UHGV virus genome: UHGV-0315696
Strand: one strand, 5' to 3'
Source: a virus
Length of the DNA stretch: 17,381 bases
In this document: piece after piece, positions 6,496-6,559 of the stretch
Numbering within the stretch: position 1 is the stretch's first letter
How the letters are laid out: every line of letters begins with the position of its first letter
Notes under the pieces: model-generated
What the model saw: only the letters and a program-made list of their open reading frames with translations
What the model was told of the DNA's origin: nothing
The model's database searches: none
Translations under genes and position numbers: made by a program

Positions 6496-6559
6496 TATCA
6501 CCGCTAGAGGTAAAATAGTCAACACGCACGGTGTTAGATATTTATCCCTTGCGGTGATA
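6496..6559. promoter_or_regulatory. Right operator OR1 (6496..6512), OR2 (6520..6536), OR3 (6543..6559) with divergent pR (cro, -) and pRM (cI, +, leaderless)
   Basis: Three 17-bp sites of the TATCACCGC half-site family. OR2 and OR3 are identical to lambda as recalled; OR1 differs by one base (T at 6505 where lambda has C on this strand). cI ATG at 6570 follows with no leader, as for pRM. Confidence 0.85.

Follow-up and report, generated by a model that had tools for sequence, protein, structure and literature searches.

In the 17,381-nucleotide stretch of UHGV virus genome UHGV-0315696 considered here (hereafter, the window), the operator OR1 resembles that of phage lambda except for a single base, which we call the focal base. 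The question raised by this locus is how the difference should be read. The base could be an ordinary natural allele, or one of two alleles kept by selection because they tune the lysogenic switch, or a mutation of the kind that makes lambda virulent, or simply an error in the source record.

The OR1 site and its surroundings

On the plus strand of the window the site reads TATCACCGCTAGAGGTA, the reverse complement of which, that is, the site in pR orientation, is TACCTCTAGCGGTGATA (Table 1). In the lambda reference J02459, OR1 (37998-38014) is TACCTCTGGCGGTGATA, and direct alignment leaves only one base apart, at 6505. This base corresponds to lambda coordinate 38005 and to position 8 of OR1, in the non-consensus half of the site, and lies at pR -18, inside the 17-bp promoter spacer; the consensus half TATCACCGC forms the low-coordinate end of OR1 (6496-6504 on the plus strand). 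Hence the site is a pseudo-palindromic 17-bp operator of the lambda type, with the TATCACCGC half and one mismatch in 17 to lambda OR1. A search with lambda OR1 as the query, allowing for up to three mismatches, yielded four operator-like sites in the window versus 0.04 expected from shuffled sequence, so the OR1 of the window is no chance match. The label oR1 is found at the homologous place in the records of mEp234, CL707, HK544, HK244, HK542, mEp332, HK106 and lambda itself.

The first-pass annotation had described one changed base in OR1, with OR2, OR3 and OL1-3 identical to lambda and with OR1 overlapping the pR -10 region. All three statements hold: the alignment shows no other difference in OR1, the sequences of the five remaining operators are the same, and the -10 hexamer GATAAT occupies 6494-6499. 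The same annotation had allowed for the lambda reference itself having the base of the window; this falls away, as J02459 has G (pR orientation) at 38005.

Table 1. Operators, promoters and regulatory genes of the immunity region in the window
Feature	Position	Strand	Description
cro	6269-6469	-	66 aa; versus lambda Cro: M12I, V55I, P57L
pR	6494-6522	-	-10 GATAAT 6494-6499; spacer 6500-6516 (17 bp); -35 TTGACT 6517-6522
OR1	6496-6512	-	CI/Cro operator of 17 bp, one base apart from lambda; reads TACCTCTAGCGGTGATA in pR orientation
Focal base	6505	-	T on the plus strand, A in pR orientation; in lambda, C and G, respectively
OR2	6520-6536	-	same sequence as in lambda; 7 bp from OR1
pRM	6535-6563	+	-35 TAGATA 6535-6540; -10 TAGATT 6558-6563
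OR3	6543-6559	-	same sequence as in lambda; 6 bp from OR2
cI	6570-7283	+	237 aa; versus lambda CI: T2A, K70N, R128K (mature numbering)
OL3, OL2, OL1, with pL	8265-8325	+	OL3 8265-8281, OL2 8285-8301, OL1 8309-8325; all three identical to lambda

The right operator is tripartite, as in lambda: the three sites, 7 and 6 bp apart, are situated over the divergent promoters pR and pRM, between cro on the minus strand and cI on the plus strand. The positions of pR and pRM were carried over from the annotated record of mEp234; the hexamers of both promoters and the spacing of the operators are the same as in lambda, and the leaderless cI transcript begins at the ATG at 6570. The CI and Cro encoded beside the operator are its cognate proteins and have the specificity of lambda, with 234 of 237 residues and 63 of 66 residues, respectively, identical to the lambda proteins. 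Two of the CI substitutions, T2A and K70N, are also present in HK97, mEp234 and CL707, and none of the six substitutions in the two proteins is known to fall into their helix-turn-helix stretches. At the nucleotide level the identity to lambda is 96.5% for cI and 96.0% for cro. As the cro-cI region overall is only about 96% identical, the window represents a different wild phage with lambda immunity, not lambda with one point change.

By analogy with lambda, CI dimers would bind OR1 and, co-operatively, OR2, and CI at these two sites would block pR and activate pRM, while Cro would occupy the same three-site operator in the reverse order of preference. Binding of CI and Cro at the OR1 of the window, and hence repression of pR, may be expected from the identity with the operators of HK97-type phages and from published substitution data.

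As a whole, the window corresponds to the early part of a lambdoid prophage of E. coli that has lambda immunity, and it runs in the opposite direction to the usual map of lambda. It comprises replication and nin-region genes, the immunity region, N, genes for recombination, which encode a RecE-family exonuclease together with Gam, Bet and Exo, the integrase (15895-17058) and a bacterial flank. Over its full extent the window is matched best by Escherichia phage PhiR5_2 (PV340546.1; 96% covered, 99.1% identity), which has the same gene order from integrase to replication genes and is 99.9% identical across cro-cI; a literature search on this phage found nothing relevant. The match leaves uncovered approximately the first 450 and the last 270 bases of the window, which, unlike PhiR5_2, is a resident prophage and includes flanking bacterial DNA. 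The top genomic matches are also resident prophages, in human E. coli isolates (99% coverage, 99.4% identity). The similarity to PhiR5_2 stops at about 17108, just beyond the integrase, and the stretch that follows reads like a gene for a bacterial iron-sulfur protein, presumably of the dmsB/ynfG kind, which suggests that the junction between the prophage and the chromosome lies there. For the last 70 bases of the window (17312-17381), the top-scoring E. coli genomes had no match. No tRNA gene was found in the window.

Several genes around the immunity region deserve mention in their own right. Between cI and OL, in the slot of lambda rexA/rexB, a gene on the plus strand (7315-8076) encodes a 253-aa protein, annotated in PhiR5_2 as "hypothetical protein", with an N-terminal KilA-N domain (Pfam, E = 8e-27) and a C-terminal half matching the PADLOC model of BstA (E = 2.5e-20); BstA is described in PMC8585504 as a prophage-encoded abortive-infection defence family. 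The N antiterminator (8576-8959, plus strand; Pfam N_peptide, E = 2e-15) is a 127-aa allele other than that of lambda, and the interval between OL1 and N departs from lambda by more than two mismatches just after OL1, in keeping with the mosaic structure known for the flanks of this region in lambdoid phages. Within the interval 11501-15334, on the plus strand, a 690-aa RecE-family exodeoxyribonuclease VIII (Pfam Exonuc_VIII) is located directly upstream of the homologues of Gam, Bet and Exo, so that the prophage has two recombination exonucleases side by side. In the nin region, a HigB/HigA toxin-antitoxin pair is recognized by homology to the PhiR5_2 annotation (approximately 970-1502, plus strand), followed by a gene for a 248-aa DUF4145 protein (1729-2475, plus strand) with a weak match to the PADLOC model PD-T7-4 (E = 0.003); these genes are possible accessory or defence cargo.

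Expected effect of the focal base on CI binding

The effect of the base on binding of CI can be taken from the literature, as Table 3 of PMC2194778 reproduces the systematic substitutions of Sarai and Takeda (1989), obtained for lambda CI on OR1. In the numbering of that paper OR1 extends from T3 to A19, and the focal base is the pair G10-C32. The exact change considered here, G10-C32 to A-T, costs +0.4 kcal/mol of CI binding, a value obtained in vitro with isolated lambda OR1 and lambda CI, and to be read with T2A in the DNA-binding arm of the CI of the window in mind. With the RT of 0.546 kcal/mol given in the same paper, this corresponds to an approximately two-fold change in Kd. On the other side of the dyad, substitutions at C12, G13, G14 and T15 cost 2.0-3.7 kcal/mol, while G10-C32 belongs to the non-consensus half, in which crystal structure 1LMB does not resolve the N-terminal repressor arm (PMC2194778). 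The focal base has one of the smallest effects measured in OR1 and contributes almost nothing to recognition by CI. The T2A substitution could in principle modify recognition of the central base; among the IMG/VR matches listed it is in partial linkage with the focal base, as is expected for sites 70 bp apart.

The value of +0.4 kcal/mol was entered into a statistical-mechanical model of OR occupancy. The binding energies used in this model are those reportedly obtained by Koblan and Ackers in 1992. For equal repression of pR, the model requires 1.4-1.5-fold more free CI dimer with the base of the window, and at lysogenic CI concentrations the residual leak becomes approximately 1.9-fold higher; for a v3-like change the model gives 30-50-fold. 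OR1 with the base of the window is still the strongest of the three sites in the model. Two further sources were considered for the effect on the promoter itself: the pR mutant library of the eLife 2017 study (PMC5481185) contains G-to-T at the focal base (residue 32 of the library, in double mutant 137) and lacks G-to-A there, and PMC3592454, where we sought substitution data for spacer position -18, covers the -10 region only.

At most, then, the base of the window is expected to fine-tune repression of pR, not to abolish immunity, and this is also the consequence that we infer for it in vivo. The first-pass annotation had proposed an altered affinity of OR1 for CI with a shift in the stability of lysogeny or in the induction threshold. 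A marked shift is unlikely given the cost of +0.4 kcal/mol; the part of this proposal that may stand is a small effect on the induction set point.

Frequency of the two OR1 bases among natural phages and prophages

We compared 121 nucleotides, from the start of cro across OR to the start of cI, in ten sequenced phages with lambda immunity. The base of the window is present in eight of them (HK97, mEp234, HK106, HK244, HK542, CL707, mEp332 and PhiR5_2), that of lambda only in lambda and HK544, and the whole stretch is identical in the window, PhiR5_2, mEp234, HK97 and HK106. The records of the EF1204xx series used here contain immunity regions with their annotation; the phages are wild ones that came from Hong Kong, Mexico and California, and the set is that of Degnan et al. 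2007 (Mol Microbiol 64:232).

In IMG/VR, a first scan that accepted any letter at the focal base gave at least 80 contigs with the base of the window, at least 32 with that of lambda and at least 8 with a third base, and among the matches listed the exact 140-nt context of the window was the commonest haplotype (at least 31 contigs). For a second scan the anchor consisted of the OR1-OR2 spacer, OR2 and four bases beyond, so that the scan was unbiased with respect to OR1. It yielded 106 contigs, 73 with the base of the window and 33 with that of lambda, and the focal base was the sole variable position of OR1 among them. Alignment with the lambda reference and with other sequences of lambda immunity, which the first-pass annotation had suggested as a check, thus confirmed the base, in eight of the ten phages and in 73 of these contigs. 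In complete E. coli genomes (n = 5426), counted by an exact 35-mer that could be seeded only across the focal base, the allele of the window was found in 177 and that of lambda in 174, the latter including laboratory K-12 lambda lysogens such as J53; like the IMG/VR contigs, these genomes are non-independent draws in which clonal strains are over-represented. In nature the OR1 allele of the window is therefore at least as common as that of lambda: the base of lambda is the rarer one in the phage and IMG/VR samples, and the two are about equal in complete E. coli genomes.

When each species was represented by a single genome, scanning produced 27 matches, of which 24 were DNA identical to lambda. 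With the exception of one in Citrobacter youngae, these came from unrelated taxa (23 matches; among the taxa are Enterococcus, Marinobacter, Desulfovibrio, Kitasatospora, Mycobacterium, Helicobacter). Many were located on short contigs or contigs labelled as low-coverage, and in several the similarity broke off abruptly on the cro side, as in cI-pR vector cassettes. Lambda-identical OR DNA in species-representative assemblies is most likely contamination with lambda or a vector, and for this reason the scan tells little about the natural distribution of the alleles. The three remaining matches, in Mixta, Pantoea latae and Enterobacter adelaidei, are genuine diverged relatives, which have the base of the window and differ in OR2, OR3 and cI. 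Across diverged lineages T, C and A all recur at the focal site; thus, this position is free to vary.

Flanking diversity is higher for the allele of the window (pi = 0.0196, 46 haplotypes in 84 contigs) than for that of lambda (pi = 0.0111, 14 haplotypes in 32 contigs). We considered whether the former is ancestral, as it is more diverse and predominates in diverged lineages; with three bases recurring at the site, no polarity is claimed. In 116 near-collinear contigs only two sites in the three right operators showed a minor allele in three contigs or more, one of them being the focal base; the invariance of OR2 is uninformative here, OR2 being partly fixed by the search patterns. The second of these sites, 6550, occupies position 8 of OR3, again in the non-consensus half, with T/C variation (4 of 116 contigs, and also CL707); the window has the lambda base there. 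As a separate observation, approximately 10 of the 116 related contigs have TAGAAG instead of TAGATA as the -35 hexamer of pRM (homologues of window positions 6539-6540), plus changes beside the start codon of cI. The window retains the lambda hexamer, and the strength of pRM may vary among wild phages with lambda immunity.

If the two OR1 alleles tuned occupancy by CI and Cro, or the strength of pR, and thereby the threshold of induction or the choice between lysis and lysogeny, both would be kept by selection and not by drift, and prophages with A and G would differ in the rate of spontaneous induction or in its set point. The intermediate frequencies (177 versus 174 E. coli genomes, 73 versus 33 IMG/VR contigs) would agree with this, as would the recurrence of both alleles on several diverged backgrounds and the fact that no other position of OR1 is polymorphic; a two-fold change in the affinity of OR1 is, moreover, not zero. 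However, few positions in OR1 have a measured effect as small as that of the focal one, its counterpart at position 8 of OR3 (6550, T/C) also varies naturally, and a third base occurs at the focal position as well. Together, these three features form the pattern of a weakly constrained site, and we consider selection on the two alleles to be unlikely. Very probably, the OR1 of the window is an ordinary operator of a wild E. coli lambdoid prophage with lambda immunity, and the differing base is a common natural polymorphism. Natural variation of the lambda operators falls where the substitution data place the weakest recognition.

Comparison with virulence alleles, HK97-type phages and lambda

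The classical virulence alleles are, like the difference between the window and lambda, single-base changes in OR1: v3 of lambda vir maps to 38007 and vC1/vs387/se109b to 38009 (PMC3349717). Since the focal base lies inside the operator where such alleles are known, it could be a virulence-type, operator-constitutive mutation, with weak repression of pR by CI and unstable lysogeny, and the first-pass annotation had drawn this connection. It does not survive the comparison of positions, as the base of the window is at 38005, in the non-consensus half, whereas the virulence alleles are on the side of the dyad with the TATCACCGC consensus half. The sites of v3 and vC1 are C12 and G14 in Table 3 of PMC2194778, and substitutions of these base pairs cost 2.5-3.7 kcal/mol, compared to the literature value of 0.4 kcal/mol for the focal base, which is far from a loss of several kcal/mol. 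Finally, v3 and vC1/vs387/se109b produce a virulent or CI-defective phenotype, whereas the base of the window is found in normal, stable temperate phages with lambda immunity, such as HK97, and in hundreds of resident prophages. A mutation of this type is thus highly improbable. As to a sequencing or assembly error, which the first-pass annotation had also allowed for and which would suit a difference of one base and nothing else, its probability is practically nil, given the same allele in eight of ten phages, which were sequenced independently and include isolates from Hong Kong, Mexico and the USA, as well as in 177 of the complete E. coli genomes and in the majority of the IMG/VR contigs, where, among the matches listed, the 140-nt context of the window is itself the commonest (at least 31 contigs).

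The natural polymorphism thus has known carriers. The 17-bp OR1, with A at position 8, is the same in the independently isolated phages HK97 (AF069529), mEp234, HK106, HK244, HK542, CL707 and mEp332 (EF120456-EF120461), and in HK97, mEp234 and HK106 the identity with the window extends over the entire 121-nt OR stretch. The flanking genes of these phages are not those of the window, in line with lambdoid mosaicism: the differences concern the N allele, what occupies the rexAB slot, and the replication genes. The difference of the window from lambda is, accordingly, the wild allele of the HK97 type, which has been present in public annotated records since 2000-2007 and is nearly neutral. The biological weight of the base is therefore small: the window has a standard wild-type OR1 of lambda immunity.

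Lambda OR1 shares 16 of 17 bases with that of the window, with G instead of A at position 8, and is placed in the same way relative to the -10 and -35 hexamers of pR and at the same spacing to OR2 and OR3. Laboratory lambda carries one allele among several, and a mismatch between a prophage and lambda should not be taken as a mutation.
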